Below are positions 1 to 34,536 of a stretch of DNA of 34,807 bases, piece by piece (positions within the stretch are counted from its first letter, which is position 1; every line of letters begins with the position of its first letter). A program made the translations under genes and the position numbers. This DNA comes from a virus (Duplodnaviria > Heunggongvirae > Uroviricota > Caudoviricetes): the IMG/VR virus record IMGVR_UViG_2526164649_000022; one strand, written 5' to 3'. The notes below the pieces were generated by a model. The model searched no databases. It was given only the letters and a program-made list of their open reading frames with translations, and was not told where the DNA came from.

Positions 1-738
1 TCACTTCGGGTAAGGCTGAATCCTGAATAGCTTAGTATTTAGTCGCTTTCTTGCGCGCTTGTTCAGGAACCTGATGTAACGATATTGATTAAATTTGTGT
101 ACCACGGCCCGCTCCTTATTCGCTCGTAAATATTCGCCGCGCTTCCCTCCACGATTAATCGCATTCATCGTTATCTCGTGATACCACTCACCGTCCAGTT
201 CGTAGAATATGCTTTCATGGCTGCCAATAAAATCAAAATTTGACGCCTGATACACAACACCTGCACACCCGCAACGTTCGTCTGCAAAGGACTGAACCCA
301 CTCCACTGACGGATACAGTAACCTGATGGTTTTCAGCGCGTAGCTGATGGCCCGTGATTCAGAGTTGCGGGGCATGTCGTCGTGTAGCCACATGCGGTTC
401 AGTTCCATATAGCCCCGGTTATCCGTTTCAAGCACAACGCGACGCCCTGAGTTGGGGTTAAGGGCATATCCCCACTGAAGAACACCAACCAGATCACGTC
501 CACTGAATACGCCCAGATGCAACCAGGAGTTATTCACAAAACGGCGGGAATAATGCTTTGTCTGAATGATTGTGCGGGCCAGCCAGCAGGATATGGTTTC
601 AACGCGCAGCTCCCTTGAACCATAGCCGACAATCCGGCCTTCATACTCAATAACGCAGGGTTTTGTCAGAATGCGTGATTTCTTCTCTTTTCCCACAATA
701 CAGCTCCGTGGGATGCTCCCGGGCACTCGATATGACAA
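1..738 (-). CDS. mom: Mom-like DNA modification (anti-restriction) protein; stop codon at window positions 1-3; start uncertain because the reading frame overlaps com
   Basis: 245-aa ORF immediately downstream of, and overlapping, a recognisable com zinc-finger gene, as in the Mu com-mom operon at the phage right end. Confidence 0.7.
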
Positions 739-832
739 TGTAACGTTTACAGCGAGGACATTTGATTTCTATATGCTTAAAACCTCCTTTAAACAGCAAT
801 TTATTGCAATTTTTACAACGAACAGAGTCCAT
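647..832 (-). CDS. com: Com zinc-finger translational activator of mom
   Basis: Internal Met of the 81-aa track ORF gives a 61-aa product [13 protein letters not shown]...CPRCKR with a CxxC...CxxC zinc finger closely matching recalled Mu Com; overlaps mom. Confidence 0.8.
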
Positions 833-892
833 AATTTCCCCCAGTGTAATAACAGGATATAGCTGCCCGGAGGGCTGGGGGTATTTAATCAC

Positions 893-957
893 ACTTGATG
901 CAAACCGACGATCGATATGATGCTATCGATCGTCATAAACTATACAAACTGATTATT
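893..957 (-). promoter_or_regulatory. Putative com-mom promoter/operator region with a Dam-site inverted repeat
   Basis: Perfect 10-bp inverted repeat ACGATCGATA/TATCGATCGT (908-917 and 924-933) carrying two GATC sites, about 75-100 bp upstream of the com ATG; Mu Pmom is known to be Dam/OxyR regulated. Confidence 0.4.
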
Positions 958-1059
958 TAATCGCCTGGTAGACTGGCCCCCTGAATCTCCAGACAACCAG
1001 TATCACTTATTTAAGTGATAGTCTTAATACTAGTTTTTAGACTAGTCATTGGAGAACAG

Positions 1060-1425
1060 ATGATTGATGTCTTAGGGCCGGAGAAACGCAGACGGCGTAC
1101 CACACAGGAAAAGATCGCAATTGTTCAGCAGAGCTTTGAACCGGGGATGACGGTCTCCCTCGTTGCCCGGCAACATGGTGTAGCAGCCAGCCAGTTATTT
1201 CTCTGGCGTAAGCAATACCAGGAAGGAAGTCTTACTGCTGTGGCCGCCGGAGAACAGGTTGTTCCTGCCTCTGAACTTGCTGCCGCCATGAAGCAGATTA
1301 AAGAACTCCAGCGCCTGCTCGGCAAGAAAACGATGGAAAATGAACTCCTCAAAGAAGCCGTTGAATATGGACGGGCAAAAAAGTGGATAGCGCACGCGCC
1401 CTTATTGCCCGGGGATGGGGAGTAA
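1060..1425 (+). CDS. insC: IS2 transposase OrfA (InsC)
   Basis: [40 protein letters not shown] matches recalled InsC; the track ORF start at 1015 is an upstream extension. Confidence 0.9.
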
Positions 1426-2288
1426 GCTTAGTCAGCCGTTGTCTCCGGGTGTCGCGTGCGCAGTTGCACGTCATTCTCAGACGAACCGATGACTGGATGG
1501 ATGGCCGCCGCAGTCGTCACACTGATGATACGGATGTGCTTCTCCGTATACACCATGTTATCGGAGAGCTGCCCACGTATGGTTATCGTCGGGTATGGGC
1601 GCTGCTTCGCAGACAGGCAGAACTTGATGGTATGCCTGCGATCAATGCCAAACGTGTTTACCGGATCATGCGCCAGAATGCGCTGTTGCTTGAGCGAAAA
1701 CCTGCTGTACCGCCATCGAAACGGGCACATACAGGCAGAGTAGCCGTGAAAGAAAGCAATCAGCGATGGTGCTCTGACGGGTTCGAGTTCTGCTGTGATA
1801 ACGGAGAGAGACTGCGTGTCACGTTCGCGCTGGACTGCTGTGATCGTGAGGCACTGCACTGGGCGGTGACTACCGGCGGCTTCAACAGTGAAACAGTACA
1901 GGACGTCATGCTGGGAGCGGTGGAACGCCGCTTCGGCAACGATCTTCCGTCGTCTCCAGTGGAGTGGCTGACGGATAATGGTTCATGCTACCGGGCTAAT
2001 GAAACACGCCAGTTCGCCCGGATGTTGGGACTTGAACCGAAGAACACGGCGGTGCGGAGTCCGGAGAGTAACGGAATAGCAGAGAGCTTCGTGAAAACGA
2101 TAAAGCGTGACTACATCAGTATCATGCCCAAACCAGACGGGTTAACGGCAGCAAAGAACCTTGCAGAGGCGTTCGAGCATTATAACGAATGGCATCCGCA
2201 TAGTGCGCTGGGTTATCGCTCGCCACGGGAATATCTGCGGCAGCGGGCTTGTAATGGGTTAAGTGATAACAGATGTCTGGAAATATAG
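1383..2288 (+). CDS. insD: IS2 transposase OrfB (InsD), DDE integrase domain
   Basis: 301-aa ORF overlapping insC in the arrangement typical of IS3-family OrfA/OrfB. Confidence 0.9.
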
Positions 2289-2919
2289 GGGCAAATCCAC
2301 CTGGTCTGAACGCTCTCACCTCGTCCAGTGTGGGCAACAGAGAAAGTTGTTCTTTCATCTCCCGCTGACAGCGATAAATCTCATCGTTGCGCTCAACAAT
2401 GGCCTGTATCATCGCTGTGGCCAGTTCCTCAAGTTCCTGCGTCGTCAGCTGCACCTGCTGATTATCCGCATCACTCCACGTCATATTTGTTTGTGCCGCG
2501 ACAGATTTTGCCAGCATGACTACCGGGGACAGGCGGCCCAGTGAGTCGGGGCCAGCATTCCAGATACGACCGTTCCATTCAAACGTGAACGGCTTCGCCT
2601 CCTGTTCTGTGCGCCATGCTTCAATTTCCTGACGTCTGGCCTCTCTGGCCGCTTCCAGCATTTCTGGTGTCACAGTGAATGGGGCTATCTCACCCCATTT
2701 GCCACTTTGCAGTTCCTGCCAGATTCGCTGACCCGTCGGTGCGACATCATCAGCGGTGGCTGTGTAGGGGACTGCCTGGTCCCTGTCGTCAAAAAAAACG
2801 TCACAGTCTACTGCGCCACTTTCGGTATAACGGGGATTAATGATTTTTTTAATTTCCACGGTGCATTCCTCACGATGTGCGAATAAAAAGCCCGGGCATT
2901 GCGCCAGAGACATGAGCAT
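2122..2919 (-). CDS. Phage tail-module protein (putative second tail-fibre assembly/chaperone-like); phage-derived part is 2300-2919; C-terminus replaced by read-through into IS2
   Basis: Position directly downstream of a tail-fibre gene; removing IS2 and one duplication copy restores ...RAFRPGD followed by TAA. A GTG start at 2859 with a GAGGA Shine-Dalgarno is plausible instead of the ATG at 2919. Confidence 0.5.
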
Positions 2920-3223
2920 CCGGCACCCCGGACAGGGCGCAATATGACCCCGGTAATGAATGCTCTGAACATCCCGTAATGAAAAATTGTGGGGATGCTA
3001 TATACGTTCCGGTGGGAGTACTGGGCACTGAAATCCCCACCGGTCCCAGTCGTGAGCCTCTGTATGACTGCCCCCTGACAAGTCTGATGACTTTATCACC
3101 GTCAGCTTCTCCCTGGTACGCAGCAATAATCAGCCCGCCAATGTCAGGGTCTCCCCATCTGTTGCGGACAGAGCTCGCCACGATTCTGTAAATAATATCT
3201 TCTGTGGTTATATTTATTTTCAC
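2870..3223 (-). CDS. Hypothetical small protein between tail fibre and assembly-like gene
   Basis: 117-aa ORF whose GTG start overlaps the stop of the upstream fibre gene (GTGA); no recognisable domain. Confidence 0.3.
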   Translation of the reverse strand: MKINITTEDIIYRIVASSVRNRWGDPDIGGLIIAAYQGEADGDKVIRLVRGQSYRGSRLGPVGISVPSTPTGTYIASPQFFITGCSEHSLPGSYCALSGVPDAHVSGAMPGLFIRTS

Positions 3224-4272
3224 CCAGTCAGTCTGGATATGGGCCAGTAGCAGTAGCGGGTGTGATAAATGGGGCCGTTAATGCCGTAAAAAGTAAGGGA
3301 TTTGGCTCTGTACCGCGGTTCTGTTGTCTCAGGGCGTGCATCAGTCCACCGGATGCTGAGCCCCCCTTCAAACCGTGTGTCGGGTATGATGATGCCGTAG
3401 GGGCCAGCAACGGAATATTCAACTGGCAGCGCATTCCTTACCCAGGCCAGGAAATCACTCTTAGTGTCAAAACGGATAACATCTTCAGGCAGAAAAGCAC
3501 ACCCAAAGCCGAATGCGCCGGGTATCGCCAGACGGCCTTTTGTCCGGTCGTAAATGTCGCTCTGTGCTTCCATCGTGGCCGCACTTTTCAGCCCCAGATT
3601 ATCCCGGGACTTCTGTTGTGCCTTTTCGCCTGCTGCTGCGATTTCAGACAGATGGTTAGCCGTTTTCAGAGTGCCGGTCAGCGCAGCATCAATGTCATTT
3701 TTGGCCTGCTCTGCTGCGCGGGCATAACCTGCGGCTGCCTGTGCACGCTGACCGGATAAGACGGCGTTTTTCCCTGTGCTTTTCACGTCTTCCGCTGTGG
3801 CCTTTCTGTTCTCAGCTGTGACGCTTGCATCCTGTCGGGCTTTCTCCGCAAAACGTTGTGCATCATCACGGGCCGTTGCGGCTGCCGTCACATCCTGCGC
3901 CGTCTGCCGTGCGTTTCCGGCTGCGCTCCCGGCACTCTGCTGCGCCTGTTGCGCCAGCTCTTCGAATTTCTTCAGGGATTCCGGACGCAGGTCAATATCA
4001 GTTGCGCCCAGAAAATCATTCAGCGAACCGTCCGTTGAATCTTCATAAACGCGGATGACACCGATTTCTGAAAGGCGCTGTGTGCTTTGTGTCAGGCGAA
4101 CGCTGTACACACCCGGCAGAACGGGGAAGTCATATTCCCCGTTCTGTGTGGTGACATGGCTGAAAACACTTTTCAGAATCCCTGCACGGTTGTGCATGGA
4201 GGTTAGTGTAATGGTTGCGCCGCCCAGCGGTTCTCCCGTGGGCGTTTTAATCACACCTTTAAGCTGCGGCAT
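3220..4272 (-). CDS. Tail fibre protein with lambda side-tail-fibre-like N-terminal domain
   Basis: N-terminus MPQLKGVIKTPTGEPLGGATITL...VYEDSTDGSLNDFL resembles the lambda Stf N-terminal domain, followed by an Ala/Gln-rich coiled region and a distinct C-terminal domain. Confidence 0.7.
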   Translation of the reverse strand: MPQLKGVIKTPTGEPLGGATITLTSMHNRAGILKSVFSHVTTQNGEYDFPVLPGVYSVRLTQSTQRLSEIGVIRVYEDSTDGSLNDFLGATDIDLRPESLKKFEELAQQAQQSAGSAAGNARQTAQDVTAAATARDDAQRFAEKARQDASVTAENRKATAEDVKSTGKNAVLSGQRAQAAAGYARAAEQAKNDIDAALTGTLKTANHLSEIAAAGEKAQQKSRDNLGLKSAATMEAQSDIYDRTKGRLAIPGAFGFGCAFLPEDVIRFDTKSDFLAWVRNALPVEYSVAGPYGIIIPDTRFEGGLSIRWTDARPETTEPRYRAKSLTFYGINGPIYHTRYCYWPISRLTG

Positions 4273-4804
4273 CGGGACGCTCCGGCCAGTTGATGGCGTT
4301 ATATGTGGCTTTATCTGTGATGGTGCTGAAATCCATCGCCTGCAGTGATTTCGCGTAAATACGGTACGCTTTCAGCTTTTCTTTATCTTCGTCGCTGATT
4401 AACCCCAGCAGCAGGTCTTCTTCCCATTCCCCTGTCCGGGCACTGACCTGAGCCAGAAGGGCATCACGCTCATCTTCCGCTTTGAGTCTGTAGTCAAAGA
4501 CAAATTCATCATTGCGGTAAAACCAGTAACCCGGCGCGGTAATGCGGCGGTTGGCGGTAATATCAGGAACTTCAATAACACTGGCGTTACGGGGTTCAAT
4601 GCCTGTCACATCCTTACCGACCCACACCACGCGCCCGTCTCCGGTGTAAACCATTTTTATGGTGTCACTGGCAAAGTTCTTCTGTTCTTCATACCAGTTT
4701 TTGCCGTCTTCCGAAAAAAGCCAGGTGACATCATACTGTTTTGTCAGCTGATATTGTTCCGCGGTTTTCGGATTACCTGCCGTAATATTTTTTAAATGCA
4801 ACAT
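4259..4804 (-). CDS. Tail fibre assembly protein (Tfa / Mu U-like)
   Basis: MLHLKNITAGNPKTAEQYQLTKQYDVTWLFSEDGKNWYEE is the conserved N-terminus of lambda Tfa / P2 G / Mu U chaperones. Confidence 0.8.
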   Translation of the reverse strand: MLHLKNITAGNPKTAEQYQLTKQYDVTWLFSEDGKNWYEEQKNFASDTIKMVYTGDGRVVWVGKDVTGIEPRNASVIEVPDITANRRITAPGYWFYRNDEFVFDYRLKAEDERDALLAQVSARTGEWEEDLLLGLISDEDKEKLKAYRIYAKSLQAMDFSTITDKATYNAINWPERPDAAA

Positions 4805-4806
4805 TG

Positions 4807-5907
4807 TTAAATACTCGCTACGTTATACCAGGTGCCATTAATCAGTTTTTGCAGCGGTCGGTAATACACACCGTTGACGTTATCCGCTGAGTTACGGCCG
4901 GTATCCGATATCGATATCCCTGACAACCCGTGTCCCGAAGGTGCGCGAAATGTCCATGAAACAGTGTTACTGCCGGGGCCGTAATACATTTCATAACCAT
5001 ACCGCACATCCTGCACGCCACCATTTCGCTGCTGGTAACGGGCATCAAAGTTTCCGTAGTCTGACGGTGTTACCCGTCCTGTAACGTTTACAGCTTTATT
5101 ACTCTGGATACTGCCACTCTGAAAACGCAACACATGCACGCTATTGGCATAAACATCCAGCAGGCCATCACCATTCTGTTTAAATCCGGTGTCATTATCA
5201 CCAAGAACAATTGAATTCCCCCCCAGGGCGTTCTGAACGCCGATACCCAGCGCACCATTGACCTGCGAACCACCGCCAACAGACACTTTATGCGACATGG
5301 ATATTTCACCCGTCCGCAAATTAATGGTGAACGGGCGCAGGGGACCAATATCGCCATTTTCCCCCTGACCTTCACTGGTGGGAATAAGGTGAAGGCACTC
5401 TTCCGAACGACGAAAAATCAGGCCAAAAGCTTCGTTGAAAATCCTCAGCGCATTAACACCACGGATTTTCAGCTCCCCTGTCATCGTGCCGCCTGATTGT
5501 TTTATGACTTTCAGTGCATCTGCAAAATCTGTTGCACTCTCTTTGCCGAGAATACCGCGCACAAAAGCACTGAGCGGCGTTAATGCCATTGTGTCTTTGC
5601 CGGTAAAATAAGGGAATGTATTATTCTGACCGGTTAATCCGGCAATAGCACCGGCTGAACCACTGTTCGTAATAAACAGCTTTTTCAGCGCCGTCATAAT
5701 CTGGTCGGTTGTGTTTTTATCCGGTTTGATATTTGCCTGCCGGAGTATTTCCAGTAATTCAGACTGAATAATATTAAACCAGTCCGGCCCCGGATACGTG
5801 GGCGGAATACCGTTCCCGCCTTCGGTGAAATAAAGCGTTGTTTTGCTTAATTCAGCTGCGACAGGTGGCATTACCGGCACACCCGTCGGGTTATCCACAT
5901 AAAACAT
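4807..5907 (-). CDS. Tail fibre protein (Mu S position)
   Basis: 366-aa Gly/Ser-rich ORF between baseplate genes and tfa; gene-order inference. Confidence 0.6.
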   Translation of the reverse strand: MFYVDNPTGVPVMPPVAAELSKTTLYFTEGGNGIPPTYPGPDWFNIIQSELLEILRQANIKPDKNTTDQIMTALKKLFITNSGSAGAIAGLTGQNNTFPYFTGKDTMALTPLSAFVRGILGKESATDFADALKVIKQSGGTMTGELKIRGVNALRIFNEAFGLIFRRSEECLHLIPTSEGQGENGDIGPLRPFTINLRTGEISMSHKVSVGGGSQVNGALGIGVQNALGGNSIVLGDNDTGFKQNGDGLLDVYANSVHVLRFQSGSIQSNKAVNVTGRVTPSDYGNFDARYQQRNGGVQDVRYGYEMYYGPGSNTVSWTFRAPSGHGLSGISISDTGRNSADNVNGVYYRPLQKLINGTWYNVASI

Positions 5908-5910
5908 AAA

Positions 5911-6495
5911 TTATTCTCCGGTGTAATAATATTCATATTCCGTGCCCGCCAGCCGGTAATGCTTCAGCAGGCATTCCAGCTCACGGGGGCGTTCGCTGAT
6001 TAATGGTGTCATGACGCCATCAATACAGGTAAACCGCCCGGCATCTTTACCCGGGACGTTCACTTTCAGCATCCAGCGATACCGCGCCGGATGCAGCGGA
6101 TACATGCAGTCGCGCAGACAGTGGTGCGGCAGAACGGCTGTCACCTTAATGGTGAAGCCCAGCGCCGCTGCTGCGGCTTCAGTCTGCCAGGTTGCCAGCC
6201 CGCCCCTGCGACGGTATTTCTCCACCACGGCACGGCGGCGGGCTTCCCTGGTGGTGGGGGCAATTCCGCATTCCGGCAGCGCCAGATACTGCTCCCACTC
6301 CGGCAGCAGCCGGAGCGTGGTTTCCGGGCGCATCTCCACATGCAGACGCGAGGCGTCGTATTCAGTGCGGTTTAAACGTTCTGCAAGCGCCCTTAAAAAG
6401 CGGTTTAAATCCGCGTCGTTATCACGCGGCCATGCCTTACCCCGTGGCATGACCTGTTGCAGTGCGGCCAGCCATTCCGTCACGCTGTGAGCCAT
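5911..6495 (-). CDS. Baseplate/tail protein (Mu gp48-like)
   Basis: 194-aa ORF at the gp48 position between the baseplate J-like gene and the fibre gene. Confidence 0.55.
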   Translation of the reverse strand: MAHSVTEWLAALQQVMPRGKAWPRDNDADLNRFLRALAERLNRTEYDASRLHVEMRPETTLRLLPEWEQYLALPECGIAPTTREARRRAVVEKYRRRGGLATWQTEAAAAALGFTIKVTAVLPHHCLRDCMYPLHPARYRWMLKVNVPGKDAGRFTCIDGVMTPLISERPRELECLLKHYRLAGTEYEYYYTGE

Positions 6496-7556
6496 GTCAC
6501 CTCCCCGATGGTGATAAGCTCATCCACATCACTGGTGGTGTCCTCCCCGATGTTAAGGAAGTAATCCGTGATGCCGGACGTCATACCGATGGCCGTGCGC
6601 AGCGAGGACACCGGCAGCGTCTGACCGGGTGCCAGTGTCTTCTGTAACGCGGTCAGGTTTGCCCGGACGGCGCTCCTGTTCGCCAAGCTGTCCGGTGTCA
6701 GACGGATGGATATGCTGACTTTCTTCAGCCTGACCTGTACCGGCCAGACCTCAATGCCGCCCGGTTTACCCACCATGACGCCCGTGGCCGGGTGTTTGTG
6801 GCAGAACAGATACTGCTCCATTGTCTTCAGGTCTTCGCGGGTTGGCACGATGTTTTCCCGGTCATCATAAAGCCATGCCAGCCCGACCGTGCCGGGGCCG
6901 TGCCATGCATCCCACGCCCACGCGCGGCTGACGCCCGGCACTTCACGCGCCCATATCACGTAGTCATGCAACGCGCCGCCTGTCGGTGGATTGCGGCGCA
7001 CATACAGCAGACGGTCCAGCAGCGCTGCGATGGATTCAGTGTCTGCGCCACCGGTGATGCCACCTTCAGCCACCGCGCCTGTGCTGGCCGTTCCGGGCAG
7101 CGGGGACAGCAGGGTGAGTACGGCACCGGCAGCAAGATTGCCCGCCACACCGGCTTCTTCAGCCTGCACGATGACGGTGACCTCGCCGTCCTGCACCTCG
7201 CCGGACGTGAGTACCTGATACACCTGGTTCGTGTCGGACTGCATCCGGGTTTCTGCCGGAAGGGGGGACTGACTGGTGAAGGTCACCCGCCCGCTGGCAA
7301 AGGTGGCCTGCTTGCGGATAACCCCTTCATACTTTGCTGTTTTGATAATGGTTTCATCATCAGACGTGGTGGACGGGATTATCTGGTCCTTAATCCAGCT
7401 CTGATGGTCGTATAAATCCCGGACCTGACTGCTGAATGACACGTTCAGCGCCTGCTCAACACTGACAGGCGGCAGCTTTTGCAGGCCGAGTTCATACGCA
7501 ATATCTTTTTCGCCGTCGGCAATCAGTTTGCCCAGCGTGGGGATTTCATACGGCAT
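6480..7556 (-). CDS. Baseplate J-like protein (Mu gp47-like)
   Basis: 358-aa ORF, size and order match baseplate J family in Mu-like tails. Confidence 0.65.
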   Translation of the reverse strand: MPYEIPTLGKLIADGEKDIAYELGLQKLPPVSVEQALNVSFSSQVRDLYDHQSWIKDQIIPSTTSDDETIIKTAKYEGVIRKQATFASGRVTFTSQSPLPAETRMQSDTNQVYQVLTSGEVQDGEVTVIVQAEEAGVAGNLAAGAVLTLLSPLPGTASTGAVAEGGITGGADTESIAALLDRLLYVRRNPPTGGALHDYVIWAREVPGVSRAWAWDAWHGPGTVGLAWLYDDRENIVPTREDLKTMEQYLFCHKHPATGVMVGKPGGIEVWPVQVRLKKVSISIRLTPDSLANRSAVRANLTALQKTLAPGQTLPVSSLRTAIGMTSGITDYFLNIGEDTTSDVDELITIGEVTWLTA

Positions 7557-7998
7557 TAATGGTGGCCTCCCATCGACGGGTGATTTCGATTCTGAGTGTG
7601 GTTTTGTCCGGGCGGGTTAACACCACCAGAAAGGCAATACGGTCAGGAATGATGATGCTGGCCGTGACGGTGGCGTTACGGGCGTAACCGGCACGCAGAA
7701 GCGGCTGCATGGACAGCCGCGCGTAATCTTCCACGCGCAGGCGGACATCTTCCGTCAGCTTTTCACGCTCAAGCAGCCACAGGCGGGAACCCCACGAAAA
7801 ATCGCTGTACGTGTCGCCCGGCCAGCCGCGCGGGTCGCCGGAGCCGTCAGGAATGACATCATCGTCATCAGCGCGGGCATCGGTGAAAAGGCAGATAAGA
7901 ACCTGAGTGACCAGCCCCTCATCCCGTGAGAGGCCGTTATGGGTGACGGTGATGTCACCTCGTGAGAGCATGTTATTCCAGCGGATTTCTGTCGTCAT
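7546..7998 (-). CDS. Baseplate protein (Mu gp46-like)
   Basis: 150-aa ORF translationally coupled within the baseplate operon. Confidence 0.55.
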   Translation of the reverse strand: MTTEIRWNNMLSRGDITVTHNGLSRDEGLVTQVLICLFTDARADDDDVIPDGSGDPRGWPGDTYSDFSWGSRLWLLEREKLTEDVRLRVEDYARLSMQPLLRAGYARNATVTASIIIPDRIAFLVVLTRPDKTTLRIEITRRWEATINAV

Positions 7999-8531
7999 AC
8001 GGGCGGTGATGTATTCTCATTGTCGCCGTCCTTATGAATGTGTTCGCTGAATGATTTACCCTTGATTCTGACATCTTCAGTGAATTCACAGGGACCGACG
8101 AATTTCATTTGTTTACCGATAATATTCAGCAGTTCGTCGGCAGTGAGATTTACCGTTTTCCCTGAAAAGTCTAATTGTTCTCCTGTGATTTCAATGACGC
8201 CGTTTTCCTTCAGGGTGATGTGTGATTTGCCGTCCCGGTGATACACCCTGACATCGCCGGGGGACAGTCCTTTCGGGCGACATCGCTTGTCTTCCACCGC
8301 GATGGCAACCAGCCCGTCACGCCGTCCGCCAACGGCCAGCACAATGGCTTCAGAACCTTCCGGCGGAACGGACGTAAACCCGTAGTTCTGGAAGCGTTCC
8401 ACGTCGTCATCGGTGGCATCTGCCAGCGTCTGAATTTGCAGGTTCTGCCGTGCCAGACCGTCAGACACCAGGCGGACAACAGCGCGGTCAACCATCAGTC
8501 GCAGGCGGCGAGCAATTGCGTTTAATCCCAT
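7995..8531 (-). CDS. Baseplate assembly protein V / spike (Mu gp45-like)
   Basis: 178-aa ORF at the gpV position; gene-order inference. Confidence 0.6.
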   Translation of the reverse strand: MGLNAIARRLRLMVDRAVVRLVSDGLARQNLQIQTLADATDDDVERFQNYGFTSVPPEGSEAIVLAVGGRRDGLVAIAVEDKRCRPKGLSPGDVRVYHRDGKSHITLKENGVIEITGEQLDFSGKTVNLTADELLNIIGKQMKFVGPCEFTEDVRIKGKSFSEHIHKDGDNENTSPPV

Positions 8532-9591
8532 GTGGCCACCGCCTTTGTTTTTTCGTCTTCGCTTTCATTTCCGGCATGTCCAGTGATTCAGGCGGAACCA
8601 GCGCCAGAACCGTCATCCTCCCCTGTGCGCCATCCGTCCATGTCACCCCGGATATCAGCCAGGTGGTTTTCAGGTTCTGAATGCTGTCGTCGATATCGAC
8701 AAGGCGGTTGGTCTGCCACAGCGGGCCGCTGTCGCCCTGTTCGCGCCAGCCTGCCACCGTGATTTCCGTCGTGCGGGACTCTCCCAGCATCCGGGCTTTG
8801 TACCATTCCCCGCGCATGCTGGCCCCGCCCACGGTCAGGCTGTCTTCATTGACCAGAATGCGCGGGCGGTAACGGTTAATTTCCGGGTCTTCGGTGATGT
8901 ACTGGCGACCGCCCACCATCGGGGCAGGCTGGCTGTCCCACAGTTTGCCACCGGCACTGGTGGTGCCCTTGATGATGTACTGGCTGTTACGCTCCCGCCA
9001 GCTGAAGCGCCCACGGGCGGCGAGGATATTTTTTCCCAGCACCAGTGACACGCCCGCGCGAACGGAAGAGGCGCGGGTGATAATCAGGTTACCCGCGCCG
9101 TCAGACGTCAGCAGAACGCCGCGCTGTTTTGCCAGCCGGTCGAGCAGTTCAAAGCCCGTTTCACCCTGTTCCAGAACGACAGACGCAAATGCCTCCCCGG
9201 TCGGGGTTTCCGTGATGACGGTTATCCCGAACGGGCGGCAGACATCAGCCGCCACCTGTTCAAGCCGCACGCCTTTCCATTTCCCGGACGAATGCACCAC
9301 AGAGCAGTCCACCAGGTCGCCGGTTTTATCGCGCCCCATGACGCGAATCTCCAAGTTTTCAGCGTCATAGCCGGGAATAAAATCATCGATATACCCCGTC
9401 AGCACGGTATCCGCGCCCAGCCTGACCGTGCAGGGTTGCCCCTCACGAATCACGCGCGGTGCCGCCGCTGACCAGCGGGTTGTCACACTGAGTTCAAACT
9501 CACCGGCAATCGCCTTCAGGGAACGGCTGACGGACATTTCCGTCCAGCCTTCCCACAGTTTGCCGTCAACGGTAAGAATCACGGATTCCAT
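8488..9591 (-). CDS. Tail/baseplate hub protein (Mu P, gp44-like)
   Basis: 367-aa ORF between N-like and V-like genes. Confidence 0.6.
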   Translation of the reverse strand: MESVILTVDGKLWEGWTEMSVSRSLKAIAGEFELSVTTRWSAAAPRVIREGQPCTVRLGADTVLTGYIDDFIPGYDAENLEIRVMGRDKTGDLVDCSVVHSSGKWKGVRLEQVAADVCRPFGITVITETPTGEAFASVVLEQGETGFELLDRLAKQRGVLLTSDGAGNLIITRASSVRAGVSLVLGKNILAARGRFSWRERNSQYIIKGTTSAGGKLWDSQPAPMVGGRQYITEDPEINRYRPRILVNEDSLTVGGASMRGEWYKARMLGESRTTEITVAGWREQGDSGPLWQTNRLVDIDDSIQNLKTTWLISGVTWTDGAQGRMTVLALVPPESLDMPEMKAKTKKQRRWPHGIKRNCSPPATDG

Positions 9592-10865
9592 CAGTCGGTG
9601 ATCTCCACAGGTTGCGTCGGCAGGATGAATGACGGATGACGCAGGCGGTTACGCTGCACGATTTCATCCCGTCGGCGTGTGTCACCATGCTCGCGCCATG
9701 CCAGCAATGCGGCAGAGGTGGTTGTGGTCAGCGTCACCTGCCGGGTTTCCGGCAGACGGGCGGCACGCTCGCGGGCATCCGTAATCACGGCCTGCCGTAA
9801 ATCGCGCAGCGTTCGCCACAATGTCCGCTGGTTGTTTTCCACCGCCGCCACCGCCTGCTCATGCAGTTCAGCCGCCAGCGTGTCACCGGCAGATAACGCC
9901 GCATCACGGGTATCGAACGTCATCGAGGCCACGGCACTGGCCTGTCCCAGCAGGGCTCCCAGCACAACCACCTGGCGGAAGTCGTCAATGTTCTTTTGCA
10001 GGCTGTCAGATACCGGCTGATAATCCGGTGACAGCCCGATGGCAAAGCCGGGGTTGCCGTCTGCCACGCTGCCGGGCTTCACGGTGATATCTTCCGGCAG
10101 TGCGCCGGTGGCAATCTGCCTGGCACGTTCTCCGGCCCACTGGTTGCGTAATGTCGTGTAAACCGCCAGTGCTTCGGGTGGTTCCGTCACAAGGCCCGCA
10201 ATATCTTCCACCCGTGCTGACAGCTCACTGACCAGACGCCCCGGTGTGGCAATGAGGGTTCCGGCCATCGCCTTAAAATGCTTCAGCCTGTCCATCCACT
10301 GATTCAGTGCTGCCGGTAACGTGGGCAGGTTAGCCACAAGGTTTTCCATATCGGCCAGAAAACTGTCGGCCATGTCACCCAGCCCGTCGAGTGCGCCGAA
10401 CCAGTCGCCATCGTCAATGGCGGCTTTCACCGCATCAATGCCTGTCAGCACTTCCTGCTGCGTGTTATCCGCCGCAGACGGGAACAGGCGCTCGCCTGCC
10501 TCAAACACTTCAAAGGTGACATACGCAATGCCGTCTTCCTCCGTGCAGAGGCGATGGGTGACCTTGCCAACCTGTACGGTCTGTATCCCGAACCACGGGT
10601 GGACAAGCTCGCCGGGGCCGGGGGTATTGAGCGCATCTAAAAGGGCGTTTAAATCATCCCGGAAGTTTTTACCTGGCAGCTTTGCGTTAATCTGCTGTTG
10701 CCCCGGAACGGCCCCGTTATCATCCGTCCAGGCGGTTTCACGCCGGGGATAAGCACGGGGAATGGCACGACGACCACCGGTGCCCTCCGTATCCACCAGA
10801 AAGAAGGGGACGCCACGAAACGAGGCGTCGCGCAGCCCGTCCCATTTACCGTTGCTCGTTGTCAT
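9591..10865 (-). CDS. DNA circulation protein N-like (Mu gp43-like)
   Basis: 424-aa ORF immediately downstream of the tape measure gene with overlapping start/stop. Confidence 0.6.
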   Translation of the reverse strand: MTTSNGKWDGLRDASFRGVPFFLVDTEGTGGRRAIPRAYPRRETAWTDDNGAVPGQQQINAKLPGKNFRDDLNALLDALNTPGPGELVHPWFGIQTVQVGKVTHRLCTEEDGIAYVTFEVFEAGERLFPSAADNTQQEVLTGIDAVKAAIDDGDWFGALDGLGDMADSFLADMENLVANLPTLPAALNQWMDRLKHFKAMAGTLIATPGRLVSELSARVEDIAGLVTEPPEALAVYTTLRNQWAGERARQIATGALPEDITVKPGSVADGNPGFAIGLSPDYQPVSDSLQKNIDDFRQVVVLGALLGQASAVASMTFDTRDAALSAGDTLAAELHEQAVAAVENNQRTLWRTLRDLRQAVITDARERAARLPETRQVTLTTTTSAALLAWREHGDTRRRDEIVQRNRLRHPSFILPTQPVEITD

Positions 10866-12685
10866 TAACCCTGCTCCACGCTGGTGACGCCAGCCTGCGC
10901 ACTGAGTCTGACGCCGGGTTGATCCACTCTGACGCTTTTCACGCGGGCATCACCTTCCACCACCACACGGATTTCCCCCTGCAATTGTTGCGGAAGGAAA
11001 GGATAATTCTGTGTGGGTTGCATACCTGCCCACGGTCGCGGGTCGGCAATGTTCTTGTCACCCAGCGAATTAAACCAGTCCGTTACCTTACGCCAGACGG
11101 ACTCGAGCGCTTTCTGGTTATCCTGGCTTTGTTGAGCGAACTCGCGCTCCCACGGGCTGGCGCTGGCATCACCGGCAACGAATTTTGTAAGGCTGTCAAC
11201 CTCACCTGGTAGGGCATATTGCGTGGTCAGAAAATCGTAAAACTCCAGAGCACCGGCAATGATGCCAGCGCCTTTACCTGCCTTTCCTCCACAGTTACCC
11301 GAACCTCGTGGATTGCGTGGGTTACGGGGATTGCGCGATGAATCCGGCGCATCCGGCAGACCGCCGGTATTACCCTTCAGCCCGCCACTGCCCATATTGA
11401 CCACATAAACCGGCATCACGCCGGAACCAAAAACATCCGTAATGCTGCCGGGTATCCCTTTGCCTTTCCCTTTGGGATTCATGATGTCGTGGATGGTTTT
11501 ACCGAACCTGTACGTCTTTCTGATGGCGATAATGCCGCCCAGCGCCGCCATATATTTACCGACCTGCAACCAGTTCTGGACAGTGTTCTGGTCCACGCTG
11601 TTAATGGCATCCGCCAGATCCTGAACGGGCTTTGCCAGTTGCCCTTCAGCGAAACGTTGCCATTCGTTATTCAGCGACTGCATCGCGGCATTAAAGCCTT
11701 CGGCATTGGTCTGTGCGGCCTTTTGCGTGGAACCCTGTTCAGCCATGCCGTAAATCATTTTCTCCAGCAATTGCCGGTTCTCCGGGCTGAGTAACGCCTT
11801 AATCCCCTGCATCCCGGTCTGATCAAACACATCCTGAAGTTTCAGCGGGTCGTATTTAGCCCGTTTGAGGATTTCCATCATCAGTTCATAGGGCTTTTTA
11901 ATGTCTTTTGTGCCTTTGACAAAAACGTCAACCCCGTTTTTTTTCAGGAACTCAATGTTCTTTTTGTCCGACAGGGAGGCATACATGGCCTGAATACTGG
12001 TCACTGTCTCATCAATGCTGCCTTTGTTTTTGGCAAACACCTGAGCAAATGCCCCCATCTGCGCAATGGCTTCCGGTCCCTGATCCTGAATGATGGAAAA
12101 CAGTTTCGGGGCCGCGCGGGCAACATCAGCAACGCTGACAGAACCCACCGCGAACTGTGCATACAACCTGTCCATTGTGTTGCTGACCGCATCAGCGCCC
12201 CGGACACCTTTTTCCCAGAACTGCGCCATCATCCCGGCTGCCACCTGTCCGTCAACACCAAACGCCTGCATAAACAGCCCCATGTTGCGCAGGTTGTCCA
12301 CCACATACTGATAATCACCGGTTTTTCCCAGCAGGGCATCAACCCCTTCACCGAGGGCTGAGGCATCAATACGGATATCCTTCTGACTGGAAACGTCCCG
12401 GATCGCGTTCTTCAGCGTGTTGACCTGCTCTGCGTTTAATTTGGCATTGGTTCCCATACGCCGCATCTGAGCATCAAAATCAGCCACGCCTTTTACCGTC
12501 ATGCTGCCACCAAGCTCGGCAATCATCGCCGTGTAGCGGTTGCCAAGCGCATCCAGACTGCGCCCAGCGGCGTCGGTTGTGGCTTTGACCAGGCGCATGG
12601 CTTTCTGGTTATTCCGGGCGAACTGCGACATATTCGCGCCATACTGCCGGGCTTTGGCGGTCAGGTTCCCGGCAAGGTTGATCAT
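10865..12685 (-). CDS. Tail tape measure protein, apparently intact, start MINLAGNLTAK at 12685
   Basis: About 606 aa, Ala/Gly/Gln-rich with Gly-rich C-terminal segment; the track ORF (to 12847) is extended by read-through from the IS600 end. Confidence 0.75.
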   Translation of the reverse strand: MINLAGNLTAKARQYGANMSQFARNNQKAMRLVKATTDAAGRSLDALGNRYTAMIAELGGSMTVKGVADFDAQMRRMGTNAKLNAEQVNTLKNAIRDVSSQKDIRIDASALGEGVDALLGKTGDYQYVVDNLRNMGLFMQAFGVDGQVAAGMMAQFWEKGVRGADAVSNTMDRLYAQFAVGSVSVADVARAAPKLFSIIQDQGPEAIAQMGAFAQVFAKNKGSIDETVTSIQAMYASLSDKKNIEFLKKNGVDVFVKGTKDIKKPYELMMEILKRAKYDPLKLQDVFDQTGMQGIKALLSPENRQLLEKMIYGMAEQGSTQKAAQTNAEGFNAAMQSLNNEWQRFAEGQLAKPVQDLADAINSVDQNTVQNWLQVGKYMAALGGIIAIRKTYRFGKTIHDIMNPKGKGKGIPGSITDVFGSGVMPVYVVNMGSGGLKGNTGGLPDAPDSSRNPRNPRNPRGSGNCGGKAGKGAGIIAGALEFYDFLTTQYALPGEVDSLTKFVAGDASASPWEREFAQQSQDNQKALESVWRKVTDWFNSLGDKNIADPRPWAGMQPTQNYPFLPQQLQGEIRVVVEGDARVKSVRVDQPGVRLSAQAGVTSVEQG

Positions 12686-12752
12686 GATTTCCGTGCTGAG
12701 ACGGCTACCTGAGGTGTACTGGCAATAGCGGACACTACCATTTGTTCTTTTT

Positions 12753-13571
12753 TTAAGCAGCCATCTGATGATATTTTTCCCTGAAGGCTGCCGGGGAGAT
12801 ATTCCCCAGACGAGAGTGACGACGCTGACGATTGTAGAAAATCTCAATGTATTCCCGTATTACTGAGATGGCTTCATCCCGGTTATTAAAACGATAGTGG
12901 CTCAGGCTCTCATTTTTCAGCGTTCCCCAGAAGCTTTCCATCGGAGCGTTGTCGTAACAGTTACCTTTACGCGACATTGATGTTTTCAGACCAGACTGCT
13001 CCTGTATGACCCGGTAATCGTATGCGCAGTACTGTGAACCTCGATCAGAGTGGTGGATTAGCCCGGCAGGTGGGCGCTGGCTCCTGAGCGCCATAAACAG
13101 GGCTTTACCTGTCAGCTCTTTTGTCATGCGCTCTCCCATGGCGTAGCCGACAATTTCACACGTATAAACATCTTTGATGCCAGCGAGGTACAACCATCCC
13201 TCCTGTGTGGCAACATACGTCAGGTCCGCCACCCAGACCTGATTTGGTGCTGTAGGAGCGAACGTCTGGTTCAGCAGATTTGGCGCAACTGGCAGATTGT
13301 GGTTCGGGTTCGTAGTCGCTCTGAACTTGCGTTTCTGCTTACAGCGTAGCCTTAGCTCCTTACGAAGACGTGCCAGTCGGTCACGACCAACGATGATGCC
13401 ATTCTCTGCCAGCTCCGTCTGGAGCCGCCGGGTTCCATATGTTTCGCGAGTGCGGATATGTGCCACCTTAATCTCCAGTTTTAGCCGCTCATCACTTTGT
13501 TTTCTGTCTGAGGGTTCATGCTGTACCCAGTTGTAATAACCGCTCCTGGATACACCAAATACCTGACACAT
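12753..13571 (-). CDS. IS600 transposase OrfB (DDE integrase domain)
   Basis: 272-aa ORF with IS3-family integrase features, downstream of OrfA. Confidence 0.9.
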   Translation of the reverse strand: MCQVFGVSRSGYYNWVQHEPSDRKQSDERLKLEIKVAHIRTRETYGTRRLQTELAENGIIVGRDRLARLRKELRLRCKQKRKFRATTNPNHNLPVAPNLLNQTFAPTAPNQVWVADLTYVATQEGWLYLAGIKDVYTCEIVGYAMGERMTKELTGKALFMALRSQRPPAGLIHHSDRGSQYCAYDYRVIQEQSGLKTSMSRKGNCYDNAPMESFWGTLKNESLSHYRFNNRDEAISVIREYIEIFYNRQRRHSRLGNISPAAFREKYHQMAA

Positions 13572-13606
13572 CGCTTCAATGGGAAATTGTTGTCGCCATT
13601 GTTCGA

Positions 13607-13909
13607 TTAACGCGTATTTTTCAGCGACTCCTGTGCAAAATACGCTGTTGCTTTTTTTAATATATCTCGCTCAAGGCGAGCTTCATTTAACGCCTTACGC
13701 AGTTGCAGAATTTCAGATTCCAGTTCAGCCACCGTGCGGGAACCAGGAGTACCGAGCCCTTTTCTGGCGGCGGTAACCCATTGTCCTAAAGTGCCTTCAG
13801 GAAGGGATAATCGGGAAGCGCCTTCACTGATCGAAAGTTGATTTTCAAGAACCGTTCTGACAGCTTCGGCTTTGAACTCTTTAGAGTAACGTTGGGTTTT
13901 TCTGCTCAT
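13607..13909 (-). CDS. IS600 transposase OrfA (HTH/leucine zipper)
   Basis: 100-aa ORF MSRKTQRYSKEFKAEAVRTVLENQLSISEGA..., typical IS3-family OrfA. Confidence 0.9.
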   Translation of the reverse strand: MSRKTQRYSKEFKAEAVRTVLENQLSISEGASRLSLPEGTLGQWVTAARKGLGTPGSRTVAELESEILQLRKALNEARLERDILKKATAYFAQESLKNTR

Positions 13910-13965
13910 TATTAGCTCCTTCTGATGCCATTCTATTTCAGGAAGGAGTGTCCGTTAAACTCAGG

Positions 13966-14181
13966 CTACCTCAACCTGTTGCCATACTGTTTCTCCAGTT
14001 GCTTTATCAGGCGGAACAACTGCCGCAGGGGCAGTTGTTCCAGGTACTGAATGCTGAATCGCGAAGACAGGTTAACCAGCAGGTTCATCAGTGCCGCCGC
14101 CAGCGGCATCAGTTCGCCCCCGCGTTGCCACCTCCTCAAGCATGTCATCCAGCACAGCCGCTTTCGTGCTGATAAGCTCAA
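13966..14181 (-). CDS. Frameshift extension frame of the tail assembly chaperone (G-T-like); last two codons and stop lie in the IS600 terminus
   Basis: ORF overlapping the 3' end of the chaperone gene in another frame, with a G5 run (C5 on plus strand, 14117-14121) at the overlap. Confidence 0.45.
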   Translation of the reverse strand: MSLSARKRLCWMTCLRRWQRGGELMPLAAALMNLLVNLSSRFSIQYLEQLPLRQLFRLIKQLEKQYGNRLR

Positions 14182-29081: not shown

Positions 29082-29136
29082 GGTAATGCTGCCAACTTAC
29101 TGATTTAGTGTATGATGGTGATTTTAAGGTGCTTGC

Positions 29137-29412
29137 GTGGCTTCCATTTCCATCAGATGTCCTTCCTGCTCCGCTACTGAAGGCGTGGTGCGTAACGGCA
29201 AAAGCACTGCCGGACATCAGCGCTATCTCTGCTCTCATTGCCGTAAAACATGGCAACTACAGTTCACTTACACCGCCTCTCAGCCCGGTACGCACCAGAA
29301 AATCATTGATATGGCCATGAATGGCGTCGGATGTCGCGCCAGTGCACGCATTATGGGCGTTGGCCTCAACACGGTTTTACGTCACTTAAAAAACTCAGGC
29401 CGCAGTCGGTAA
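29137..29412 (+). CDS. insA: IS1 InsA
   Basis: 91-aa [42 protein letters not shown]... matches recalled InsA. Confidence 0.9.
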
Positions 29413-29834
29413 CCTCGCGCATACAACCGGGCAGTGATGTGATTGTCTGCGCTGAAATGGACGAACATTGGGGCTACGTCGGTGCTAAATCACGTCAGCG
29501 CTGGCTGTTTTACGCGTATGACAGGATACGGAGGACGGTTGTGGCGCACGTCTTCGGTGAACGCACTCTGGCCACACTGGAGCGTCTTCTGAGCCTGCTG
29601 TCGGCCTTTGAGGTCGTGGTATGGATGACGGATGGCTGGCCGCTGTATGAATCACGCCTGAAGGGAAAGCTGCACGTTATCAGCAAGCGTTACACTCAGC
29701 GCATTGAGCGACATAATCTGAATCTGAGACAACATCTGGCAAGGCTGGGACGGAAGTCACTGTCGTTCTCAAAATCGGTGGAGCTGCATGACAAGGTCAT
29801 CGGGCATTATCTGAACATAAAACACTATCAGTAA
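29331..29834 (+). CDS. insB: IS1 InsB reading frame (expressed as InsAB' by -1 frameshift)
   Basis: ORF overlapping the insA 3' end and ending ...[15 protein letters not shown], as in IS1. Confidence 0.85.
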
Positions 29835-29880
29835 GTTGGAGTCATTACCCGGATTTTGACGTTCATTGTCAGCGTTCCTT

Positions 29881-31445: not shown

Positions 31446-33273
31446 TCAGGCCAGCGGATCATCTTCTTCCTGCATGGCAAAAAGTTTTTGCATCCCCAGC
31501 CGGAAATCGCGTTCAAATTCTTCGTCATGCTCTTCTTCATATTCCGGTTGCTGAACTGCCACCACATTACCAACCGGGCGATAAACATTACTCAGCCAGG
31601 GTTCAGCCTGTTTGTGTTCCAGAATCTGAATACCTTCATCTTCAGCATCACGAATTTTTTCCTCAGCGCGTTTGCGCATTCCTTTAATACGCTGCTGTTG
31701 TTTGTGATATTCAGCACTGACAGCAAAGGCTGCGCGTTTATTGCCGTTCCATATCGCCTCACAGATAAAGCTGCCGTCCTTGCGACGTACCGTAATTCGC
31801 TCGGCGTCATGAATGTCATAACTGATAAGCACTTTGCGACCGTGTTCGTCACGCAACTCCGGCGCGTAGTAAATATTGTTCAGCCACTGAATTTCGCAGC
31901 GTCTTACCGGTCGTTCCACCATTGGGCGGAACATGTCGCGCAGCTCAAGATCACTCAGCCACTCAATTTCGGTGTCTTCTTCTGCCAGGCGTTTTTTCTG
32001 AACTCTGTCGGGCTGTAATGCCGTCCGTTCGGTTTCATCGGCAGCTCAGAATGCGGGCGGTTGTTGTACCATTCCACGCCTTCACGAATAGCCTCAATAA
32101 GCTCCGCCCACGATGGCAGCTCGCGCATTGCCGCTTTCTGGCGGTCGTTCAGAGGCTTGTCCTGTTGCAGGGCGTTAAACGCTGAACGCAGATCACGGTT
32201 AAGTACACGCAACGATTCCCGGTCAGCACCCTTGCCAAAATAGGTGCGATACCTCCTGGCTATACGCATCGGCAGTGTCCGGTTCAGGCGTTCAATAATG
32301 CCGCGTCCCTGTGGATTACCGGCAATACCGGTAGGGTGTTTAATCCCCAGGCGTGGCAGAATACCCACGACCTCTTTGTCCAGCATGTCAGCCGTTTCAC
32401 CGGAACCGTTATCCGAGTAATACAGGAACGGTTTTCCGTGGTTGCGAATGCCGTGCTGTATCGCACCGGCAACGGCGAACACGTTTTCGGCAAGGTCAAG
32501 ACTCCAGCCAACAACAAACCGTGTTCCACCATCGATCACAAACGTGACTTCCGGTGAGAATGGACGCCCGTGGATCGGATGCGCACATTTCAGCTTCATA
32601 CCGTGACCGTCACCAATCCAGACATAATTCACCGGCATAGCTGTCCAGTCGCGGCGGGTGAATCCTTCAAGCTGACGGTATTCACTGCCGGTAACGCGCC
32701 CTTTTTGTTTCACCACTTCCGGCAGTTTTTTCATGGCATACCGGACAACATCATAGGAAGGCATCACCTCCAGCATGTACGGTTCGTCCGCATGGCGACG
32801 CTGCCATTCTGCGACAAAATCCTCGTAGGCTTCTGACATGGGTCTGCCGTTCACCTGGCGATACTGCGCCAGAAATTCAGGCAGCCAGCTGATTTCTTCC
32901 GGTTTTATTTCGTCGCGTTTTCCCGGTGCCAGTAACAGCAGCCGTTCGGCGGCGTTCTGCGACTGGTTGTATTTCAGAACCCACTGGTAAAGTGGATCGC
33001 GGCTGATAGTACGATTAGCGCCACGTTTTGCATTGGCGTTAACTGCGGCCTGTTGCAGGCGCTCCGGCAGCTCACCTTTACGGGCTTTTTCAACAAGAAA
33101 GTTAATGGCTTTCAGTCGCCCGAGGTTACCGGCGCTTTCCAGCTTCAGCACTTCCACCACCAGCGCAGCTCTTGCTTCAGATACCCAGCGCTGGTTTTCG
33201 GTCAGCGCATTCAGGCGTTCTTCCATCAGTTGTGGAGAACCGCGATATGCTTCGATTGCCTGGACAGCGTCAG
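31446..33273 (-). pseudogene. A: Mu A-like DDE transposase, central and C-terminal parts, frameshifted in a T6 run (31992-31997) and severed from its N-terminus by IS600
   Basis: ORFs 31955-33322 and 31446-31934 align to consecutive MuA regions in different frames (...VWIGDGHG... catalytic core; ...NNIYY...DGSFICEA domain III). Confidence 0.8.
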
Positions 33274-33337
33274 TGAGGTAGCCTGAGTTTAACGGACACT
33301 CCTTCCTGAAATAGAATGGCATCAGAAGGAGCTAATA

Positions 33338-33640
33338 ATGAGCAGAAAAACCCAACGTTACTCTAAAGAGTTCAAAGCCGAAGCTGTCAGAACGGTTCTT
33401 GAAAATCAACTTTCGATCAGTGAAGGCGCTTCCCGATTATTCCTTCCTGAAGGCACTTTAGGACAATGGGTTACCGCCGCCAGAAAAGGGCTCGGTACTC
33501 CTGGTTCCCGCACGGTGGCTGAACTGGAATCTGAAATTCTGCAACTGCGTAAGGCGTTAAATGAAGCTCGCCTTGAGCGAGATATATTAAAAAAAGCAAC
33601 AGCGTATTTTGCACAGGAGTCGCTGAAAAATACGCGTTAA
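33338..33640 (+). CDS. IS600 OrfA (copy 2; one Ser-to-Phe difference from copy 1)
   Basis: 100-aa ORF identical to copy 1 except SRLSLPEG to SRLFLPEG. Confidence 0.85.
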   Translation: MSRKTQRYSKEFKAEAVRTVLENQLSISEGASRLFLPEGTLGQWVTAARKGLGTPGSRTVAELESEILQLRKALNEARLERDILKKATAYFAQESLKNTR

Positions 33641-33675
33641 TCGAACAATGGCGACAACAATTTCCCATTGAAGCG

Positions 33676-34493: not shown

Positions 34494-34536
34494 AAAAAGA
34501 ACAAATGGTAGTATCCGCTATTGCCAGTACACCTCA

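Follow-up and report, generated by a model that had tools for sequence, protein, structure and literature searches.

A complete copy of IS2, an insertion sequence (IS) of 1,331 bp, is present at positions 969..2299 of a 34,807-nucleotide (nt) stretch of DNA, the IMG/VR virus record IMGVR_UViG_2526164649_000022 (termed here the window, meaning the whole stretch that was analysed). The element very probably entered by a simple insertion into the 3′ end of a gene for a DUF4376-type tail-fibre chaperone, in the course of the ordinary IS-driven decay of a Shigella flexneri Mu-like prophage. The event is best explained as a single copy-out-paste-in insertion of the complete IS2, with CCAGG in the final codons of the chaperone gene as its target; the host element is a Mu-like prophage of S. 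flexneri, and a small lineage has inherited the event. This is an already known kind of event. It displays no departure from known biology, and the element is a textbook IS2.

IS2 was recognized by its length, its ends and its Pfam matches. It lies on the plus strand, with its transposase genes opposite in strand to the prophage genes. Two copies of CCTGG (CCAGG on the gene strand) flank it and form the target-site duplication, the left copy at 964..968 and the right copy at 2300..2304. The boundaries at 969 and 2299 are those given in a preliminary description of the window, and a complete 1,331-bp IS2 is found between the two CCTGG copies. The IS2 genes read away from the prophage genes com and mom, so that the left inverted repeat (IRL) is toward com-mom and the right inverted repeat (IRR) is toward the chaperone gene.

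The left end of the element has TAGACTGGCCCCC at its start and the right end has GGGGCAAATCCA at its finish. IRL, the recipient end, is 42 bp in length (969..1010, plus strand) and starts with 5′-TAGACTGG. IRR, the donor end, is 41 bp in length (2259..2299, plus strand), abuts the chaperone gene and terminates in ...GCAAATCCA-3′ (...AATCCA), i.e. it finishes with CA-3′. Both were delimited by alignment of the inverted repeats, which are imperfect; about 41 positions align with one gap. The window copy agrees with the published anatomy of IS2, which includes a 42-bp IRL, a 41-bp IRR and an A6G frameshift window (PMC3299598). The extended -10 of the promoter P_IRL, TGAT, is at IS2 residues 48–51 (window positions 1016–1019), reads inward and has the position given in PMC3299598.

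Two open reading frames are present on the plus strand of the element. The first, orfA (1060..1425), encodes 121 amino acids (aa) with a helix-turn-helix motif (Pfam HTH_Tnp_1), and the second, orfB (1383..2288), displays a reading frame of 301 aa with the DDE/rve catalytic domain (Pfam rve, rve_3 and HTH_21). A programmed -1 frameshift site, A-AAA-AAG in the orfA frame (1377..1383, plus strand), joins orfA to orfB. Membership in IS2 was set at 95% or greater nt identity to a reference or annotated IS2; the window copy shows 99.8% identity over 1,331/1,331 bp to many copies annotated as “IS3-like element IS2 family transposase”. With its intact open reading frames and ends, this copy is apparently transposition-competent.

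The window copy appears to be a minority variant at its left end, because only 308 of 7,226 matching Escherichia coli records reach 99% identity or more with a 241-bp junction query, in which the IS2 left end makes up the 122 bp on the right. In the docking region of the OrfA repressor (IRL residues 39–48, window 1007..1016), the sequence is TTATTTAAGT in the window copy and TTAAATAAGT in the published element.

To obtain the empty site in silico, positions 969..2304 were deleted and 800 bp across the joint were used as a query. The DUF4376 gene, com and mom were found uninterrupted and in one piece in 17 complete E. coli genomes. The best IS-free matches over the whole 800-bp reconstructed query are those of E. 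coli FDAARGOS_943 (98.8%) and VL40 (98.1%). The preliminary description had proposed a simple insertion with a 5-bp CCTGG duplication, and this holds: CCAGG/CCTGG is single-copy in the IS-free alleles of both strains. The restored junction, when checked against the sister prophage in FDAARGOS_943, differs at one of 190 bases, and the restored protein and the sister protein have the identical ending ...RAFRPGD followed by TAA, as had been predicted for the removal of IS2. In a window-wide BLAST comparison with FDAARGOS_943, the two flanks of IS2 abut with an overlap of 5–6 bp, as expected for a target duplication.

The empty allele of the gene ends with CCA GGC GAT TAA. IS2 sits after CCAGG, 4 nt (C GAT) before the stop codon, and the orphaned gene end that it cuts off (C, GAT for Asp and TAA) is at 957..963 on the minus strand. 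The site had been described as 4 codons before the stop; the correct distance is 4 nucleotides, and only the terminal Asp is replaced. On the other side, the com ATG is at position 832 of the minus strand and 136 bp (833–968) separate it from IS2. The element thus abuts the com-mom upstream region, as first described.

The insertion is real and is inherited within a small S. flexneri lineage, since both junctions recur in S. flexneri assemblies. S. flexneri 2850-71 (GCA_000268085.1) shows both IS2 junctions and is 100% identical to window 1..10272. A National Collection of Type Cultures (NCTC) S. flexneri chromosome (GCA_900457175.1) shows both junctions on a 4.8-Mb contig, with 99.98% identity to the same region. 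The frameshifted tail-fibre product that is encoded next to the chaperone gene was used as a lineage marker; it was recovered from four NCBI contigs, and the insertion is shared by 4 assemblies or more. None of 5,426 complete E. coli genomes has the IS2/prophage junction, as none of the 7,226 matching records covers 80% or more of the junction query. Searches of GTDB species representatives and JGI metagenome contigs for the exact junction gave zero matches; the species-representative result is uninformative on Shigella, because there is one representative genome per species.

The fused protein created by the insertion has been deposited as “prophage tail protein [Shigella flexneri]” (SUI70287.1 and SUI71203.1; 263 aa, three contigs). 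The deposited length results from the choice of Met3 as the start by the gene caller; the 263-aa version is on record, and there is no exact protein record for the 265-aa or 245-aa forms. Hundreds of “partial” Shigella DUF4376 proteins on short contigs were considered as a sign of widespread insertion and were rejected, as several paralogous prophage loci, with different truncation points, are mixed together in their clusters.

The interrupted gene is a DUF4376-type tail-fibre chaperone gene, as judged by its domain, its position and its characterized homologs, with a Stf-like fibre as presumed client. Its native part is at 2300..2859 on the minus strand and matches Pfam PF14301 (3e-17; 63.4 bits against a cut-off of 25, residues 90–199 of a 208-aa form) and phrog_1141. 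The gene that immediately precedes it on this strand is that of the Stf-like fibre. Experiments on Alteromonas phage V22 (PMC7289586) and on the Campylobacter CJIE1 prophage (PMC7882524) have shown that DUF4376 proteins whose genes follow a fibre gene are chaperones, and the A5 homolog (gp9) binds its fibre, yet is dispensable in vitro (PMC10579305). The gene had been termed tail assembly-like. The function stands, by way of these distant DUF4376 chaperones (PMC7289586, PMC10579305, PMC7882524), but the assignment to the Tfa family does not: Pfam Caudo_TAP (PF02413) gives no match in the interrupted protein, where DUF4376 is the sole domain at E ≤ 0.01. PF02413 matches a separate, intact 181-aa protein (4259..4804) that serves the first fibre cassette. 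Fold searches against solved chaperones yielded no specific match for the DUF4376 protein.

A GTG codon at 2859, which is 10 nt past the stop of the upstream fibre gene and is preceded by a GAGGAA Shine-Dalgarno sequence, would give a protein of 188 aa. This GTG is probably the start codon. The 208-aa E. coli form in RefSeq, with an ATG at 2919, overlaps the fibre gene by 50 bp. It is probably an over-extension of the start, because DUF4376 homologs have lengths of 187–191 aa and phrog_1141 fits the 188-aa version, which it matches end to end.

With IS2 in place, the chaperone reading frame continues into the element. The fused open reading frame (2122..2859, minus strand, stop codon at 2122–2124) encodes 245 aa from the GTG at 2859, or 265 aa from the ATG at 2919; residues 1–187 are native, and the antisense strand of IS2 supplies the 58 that come after. 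An IS2-encoded C-terminal tail had been foreseen and is present. Gly207 is kept (GGC to GGT, a synonymous change), Asp208 alone is lost and 58 residues are gained. Among the 120 best homologs, the 118 that are full-length have a C-terminal overhang of -1 to +3 residues (two truncated entries are excepted), and the extension of +57 seen here is far outside natural length variation. On this ground, it is plausible that the 58-aa tail may impair the chaperone. An AlphaFold2 model of the 245-aa protein, computed with 49 homologs, gave a predicted local distance difference test (pLDDT) score of about 90 for the core at residues 1–187 and below 50 for residues 190–245; the IS2-encoded tail is therefore predicted to be disordered. 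A disordered tail of 58 aa would be at best neutral for the chaperone.

The tail may have had a larger role, in which inactivation of the chaperone by the extension was the primary lesion; the fibre gene would then have become dispensable and acquired its frameshift afterwards. The fixed length of the DUF4376 C-terminus in the 118 homologs would be consistent with this, as would the C-terminal DUF4376 domain, which extends to residue 199 of 208. A bulky tail could also interfere with assembly of the protein, as DUF4376 chaperones are proposed to trimerise via a helical body (PMC10579305). But only one native residue is lost, the last 4–7 residues of DUF4376 homologs vary in sequence, and tails such as this one, predicted by the model to be disordered, are often tolerated; moreover, the A5 gp9 chaperone is dispensable for its fibre in vitro. 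The IS2 insertion and the fibre frameshift are found together in all four assemblies, and neither is seen to precede the other. A decisive role of the tail is accordingly thought unlikely. Under the reading preferred here, that of an ordinary insertion in a decaying prophage, impairment of the chaperone would be of little consequence, because its client fibre gene already has a frameshift and there are several further lesions in the prophage.

The Stf-like tail-fibre pseudogene (phage_tail_N; 2870..4272, minus strand) is the presumed chaperone client. It has a 4-bp deletion near 3227, and is split into a 350-aa product and an out-of-frame 117-aa segment, compared with an intact 468-aa protein in the sister prophage. 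The 350-aa fibre product is itself deposited as an S. flexneri protein.

Further lesions are found elsewhere. One copy of IS600 (12710..13973, minus strand) is inserted at codon 2–3 of the tape-measure gene, and another (33274..34536, plus strand) is inside the MuA transposase gene, in inverted orientation relative to the first. Both are 1,264 bp in length and are 99.7% identical to each other. MuA matches in two frames (query residues 80–513 and 507–695), which places a frameshift near 32000 (~31950..32020, minus strand). A truncation of the MuA gene at 32959 was considered and ruled out; the gene runs on past this position at a lower identity, interrupted by IS600 and frameshifted, and its N-terminal 71 residues beyond IS600 are 51% identical to those of the sister prophage. 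IS expansion is well known in Shigella genomes, and several IS2 and IS600 insertions in one prophage fit this expansion. A gene-by-gene comparison with the sister prophage shows that the Mor/C-family activator, com and mom are intact. The prophage is defective (cryptic), and as a result of the fibre frameshift, the IS600 in the tape-measure gene and the IS600 and frameshift in MuA, any effects of IS2 are probably now moot for the phage.

The other neighbor of IS2 is the com-mom operon. The com gene (647..832, minus strand) encodes a 61-aa zinc-ribbon translational activator of mom (Pfam Zn_ribbon_Com) that is 100% identical to Com of the sister prophage. The mom gene (1..696, minus strand; Pfam Mom, 3e-74) starts at 696, overlaps the end of com and has its 3′ end cut by the window edge; residues 1–231 of 235 are matched. 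The region from the last chaperone codons to com was aligned between the restored window, eight IS-free E. coli prophages (82%–99% identical overall) and phage Mu. Among the aligned prophages, the 124 bp between the TAA stop codon and the com ATG (833..956, minus strand) are almost invariant and form a conserved com-mom upstream block of the Pmom type, which in the window is intact and contiguous with com. Variation is seen in the last ~5 chaperone codons, to which the CCAGG target belongs, and IS2 is thus just outside the conserved block.

The block contains a palindrome at 907..934, GACGATCGATA-N6-TATCGATCGTC, a perfect 11-bp inverted repeat with Dam GATC sites at 910 and 928. These belong to two CGATCG (PvuI) sites 18 bp apart (CGATCG-N12-CGATCG), which are invariant in 8/8 relatives and align with the pair in Mu Pmom; the distal CGATCG is 37 bp from IS2. 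PvuI fragments of Mu Pmom are 60, 18 and 182 bp (PMC3378877). Two of the three GATC sites of Mu are conserved and the third is CATC in this prophage family, where the Dam/OxyR switch may work with two sites. The Mu region carries Dam/OxyR sites, a C site, a poor -35/-10 pair and Fis sites that reach to -133; Fis protects -133 to -115 and -107 to -84 (PMC3378877). Mu coordinates were assigned by taking TAAGAT as the -10 and assuming +1 to be about 7 nt downstream, an estimate that puts the Mu GATC sites at about -88, -70 and -57. With the CGATCG pairs aligned, the IS2 end is at roughly -125.

No -10/-35 pair is conserved upstream of com in the alignment with the eight relatives. A C-box-like sequence, ATACCCCC at 877–884, resembles ATAACCCC of the Mu late promoters (oligonucleotides in PMC4461284). 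A count of the motif, made to validate a C-binding site upstream of com, is not above chance.

Both P_IRL and the -10 of the minicircle junction promoter are located in IRL and read inward; the outward-directed -35 of IS2, which is the source of fusion promoters such as that of ampC, lies in IRR (PMC3299598, PMC9330008). In the window, the outward -35 of IRR (TGGAAA, 2278–2283) points away from com-mom. This hexamer has no -10, as the flanking hexamers at 16–18 bp match TATAAT at 0–2 of 6 positions. A consensus promoter scan of positions 640–2500 gave one site (2310..2282, minus strand, reading into IS2), with 1.7 expected, and no outward promoter was detected above chance at the IRL end by either the consensus or the relaxed scans. 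The two candidates for hybrid promoters at the IS2 junctions, the 2310..2282 site and a match of 8/12 where IRL meets the flank, do not exceed chance expectation. The scan of 640–2500 predicted no terminator on the minus strand.

The preliminary description had suggested that IS2 could supply or disrupt promoter elements for com-mom, to be checked by promoter prediction. The 124-bp block is intact, IRL is the end that faces com, and promoter prediction at the IS2/com-mom junction yielded no outward promoter above chance, so this suggestion was not borne out. A donation of promoter elements by IS2 has no support, because IRL faces com, the -35 of IRR points away and the scans are at chance. The conservation of the block suggests that the cis-control of Pmom would be essentially unchanged by IS2. 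The element would at most add 1.3 kb of mostly untranslated sequence and so lower any read-through out of the late tail operon; past the end of the fused open reading frame, the IS2 antisense RNA is untranslated for about 1.15 kb. Reduced late-operon read-through would be the remaining possible regulatory effect.

Several points weigh against the interpretation given here. It is from the conservation of the block that Pmom is taken to be probably unaffected. The Fis footprint of Mu reaches to -133 (PMC3378877) and IS2 is at roughly -125, and a distal element, if there is one, could be displaced. The ATACCCCC motif is not enriched in the window (7 found, 4.4 +/- 2.1 expected).

These points bear on the possibility that IS2 does alter com-mom, by loss of a distal element (a Fis site or DNA curvature), by a hybrid IRL promoter or by insulation from read-through. 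The element is 37 bp from the distal CGATCG and 136 bp from the com ATG, and by alignment it maps at about -125, with Fis protecting -133 to -115 and -107 to -84 in Mu. The 8/12 hybrid match on the minus strand combines GGGCCA in IRL, a 16-nt spacer and AATAAT at 957–952, and the IS-free arrangement is without an intrinsic terminator between the tail operon and com. However, the conserved block starts at the stop codon and is wholly downstream of IS2, and the coding DNA that adjoins it upstream varies among relatives, which speaks against a distal element that is conserved. No outward promoter element is known in IRL, the 8/12 match does not reach the scan threshold and matches of this quality are as frequent as expected by chance. 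The early-region transposase gene is also interrupted, and the cascade that leads to the late activator is probably compromised too. An altered regulation of com-mom is judged very unlikely. Such a change could have been selected, because mom expression is cytotoxic; that IS2 was retained in the S. flexneri lineage for altering the cytotoxic com-mom function, through a read-through block or the displacement of a distal silencer or architectural site, is considered highly improbable. If true, it would be a natural case of an IS re-tuning a toxin-like DNA-modification function in a cryptic prophage.

An assembly artefact, e.g. a repeat-induced misjoin, has virtually no likelihood: IS2 is multicopy in Shigella and E. 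coli (a median of 4 places per genome) and many DUF4376 proteins of draft Shigella assemblies are “partial” at contig ends, but identical junctions are present in independent assemblies, including the 4.8-Mb NCTC contig, and a misjoin would not yield a perfect 5-bp duplication and an exact match to the empty site.

The simple insertion of IS2 into the end of the chaperone gene took place in a prophage whose genes are on the minus strand and include mom, com, two fibre/chaperone cassettes and baseplate, tail, head and terminase genes, as well as genes for a GH108 lysin, a Mor/C-family activator, MuB and MuA. The two cassettes are in tandem (2300..5907, minus strand), with a 366-aa fibre and a Caudo_TAP protein, then the Stf-like fibre and the DUF4376 protein, and then com-mom. 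The prophage family is without the gin invertase or an invertible G segment, unlike Mu. At 29089..29852, ~0.76 kb of unrelated sequence stands in place of some 2.8 kb that in the sister prophage contains Gam, DUF5420 and several hypothetical genes, and this difference could be a mosaic replacement or a deletion.

No close relative of the backbone at 4800..12700 is present among 50,697 sequenced phage records, where Klebsiella phage Kp4866-3 ranks first (65.7% identity over 57% of the query). Near-identical prophages are found in E. coli chromosomes. In S. flexneri, the mom end of the prophage adjoins a UbiD_C fragment, EcdD/BsdD and a GntP permease (L011/L012 10387..12535), and in E. coli FDAARGOS_943 the prophage is between glcA and a truncated sslE (L002 1..1344). 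Differing host neighbors are expected of a transposable Mu-like phage that integrates almost randomly.

The insertion is of little importance beyond annotation. SUI70287.1, the “prophage tail protein” of 263/265 aa, is a 188-aa DUF4376 chaperone extended artefactually by read-through into IS2, and cryptic is the proper annotation for the prophage. The precise insertion site of IS2 could mark the lineage of a small group of S. flexneri strains. The 124-bp com-mom control block, which is defined by conservation in Mu-like prophages without gin, could guide a study of mom regulation outside Mu.

Five known systems can be compared with the region. Phage Mu has the same overlapping com and mom genes, the palindromic pair of CGATCG sites 18 bp apart and a gene for a Mor/C-family activator. 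The window differs from Mu Pmom in having two GATC sites instead of three, no T6 run, no recognisable Mu -35/-10 and no C-binding site that can be assigned with confidence, and the gene upstream of com is gin in Mu and a fibre-chaperone gene in the window.

The IS2 fusion promoters, e.g. that of ampC (Jaurin and Normark, 1983; PMC9330008), resemble the arrangement in the window in that an IS2 end is close upstream of a poorly expressed gene. In these promoters IRR gives an outward -35 at 16–18 bp from a resident -10, whereas in the window it is IRL that faces com-mom, at 136 bp from the ATG.

The chaperone gene shares with V22 gp27, A5 gp9 and the CJIE1 gene after the H-fibre a C-terminal DUF4376 domain, a length of ~190 aa and a position directly downstream of a fibre gene. 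The window protein is only distantly related to these chaperones, it has the 58-aa IS2-derived extension, and its client fibre is a pseudogene. With the Caudo_TAP proteins Lambda Tfa, Mu U and P2 G it has in common a gene position after the fibre gene and a presumed chaperone function; it differs from them in showing no Caudo_TAP match.

In comparison with IS2 of E. coli and Shigella (IS3 family, IS2 group), the window copy has TATTTAA where the published OrfA docking site is TAAATAA (IRL residues 40–46; residues 42–43 are changed). In all else that was compared, nothing essential is different: the two share the length of 1,331 bp, the 42/41-bp IRL and IRR with TA and CA termini, the 5-bp duplication, the orfA and orfB genes with the A6G -1 frameshift, and the position of P_IRL.

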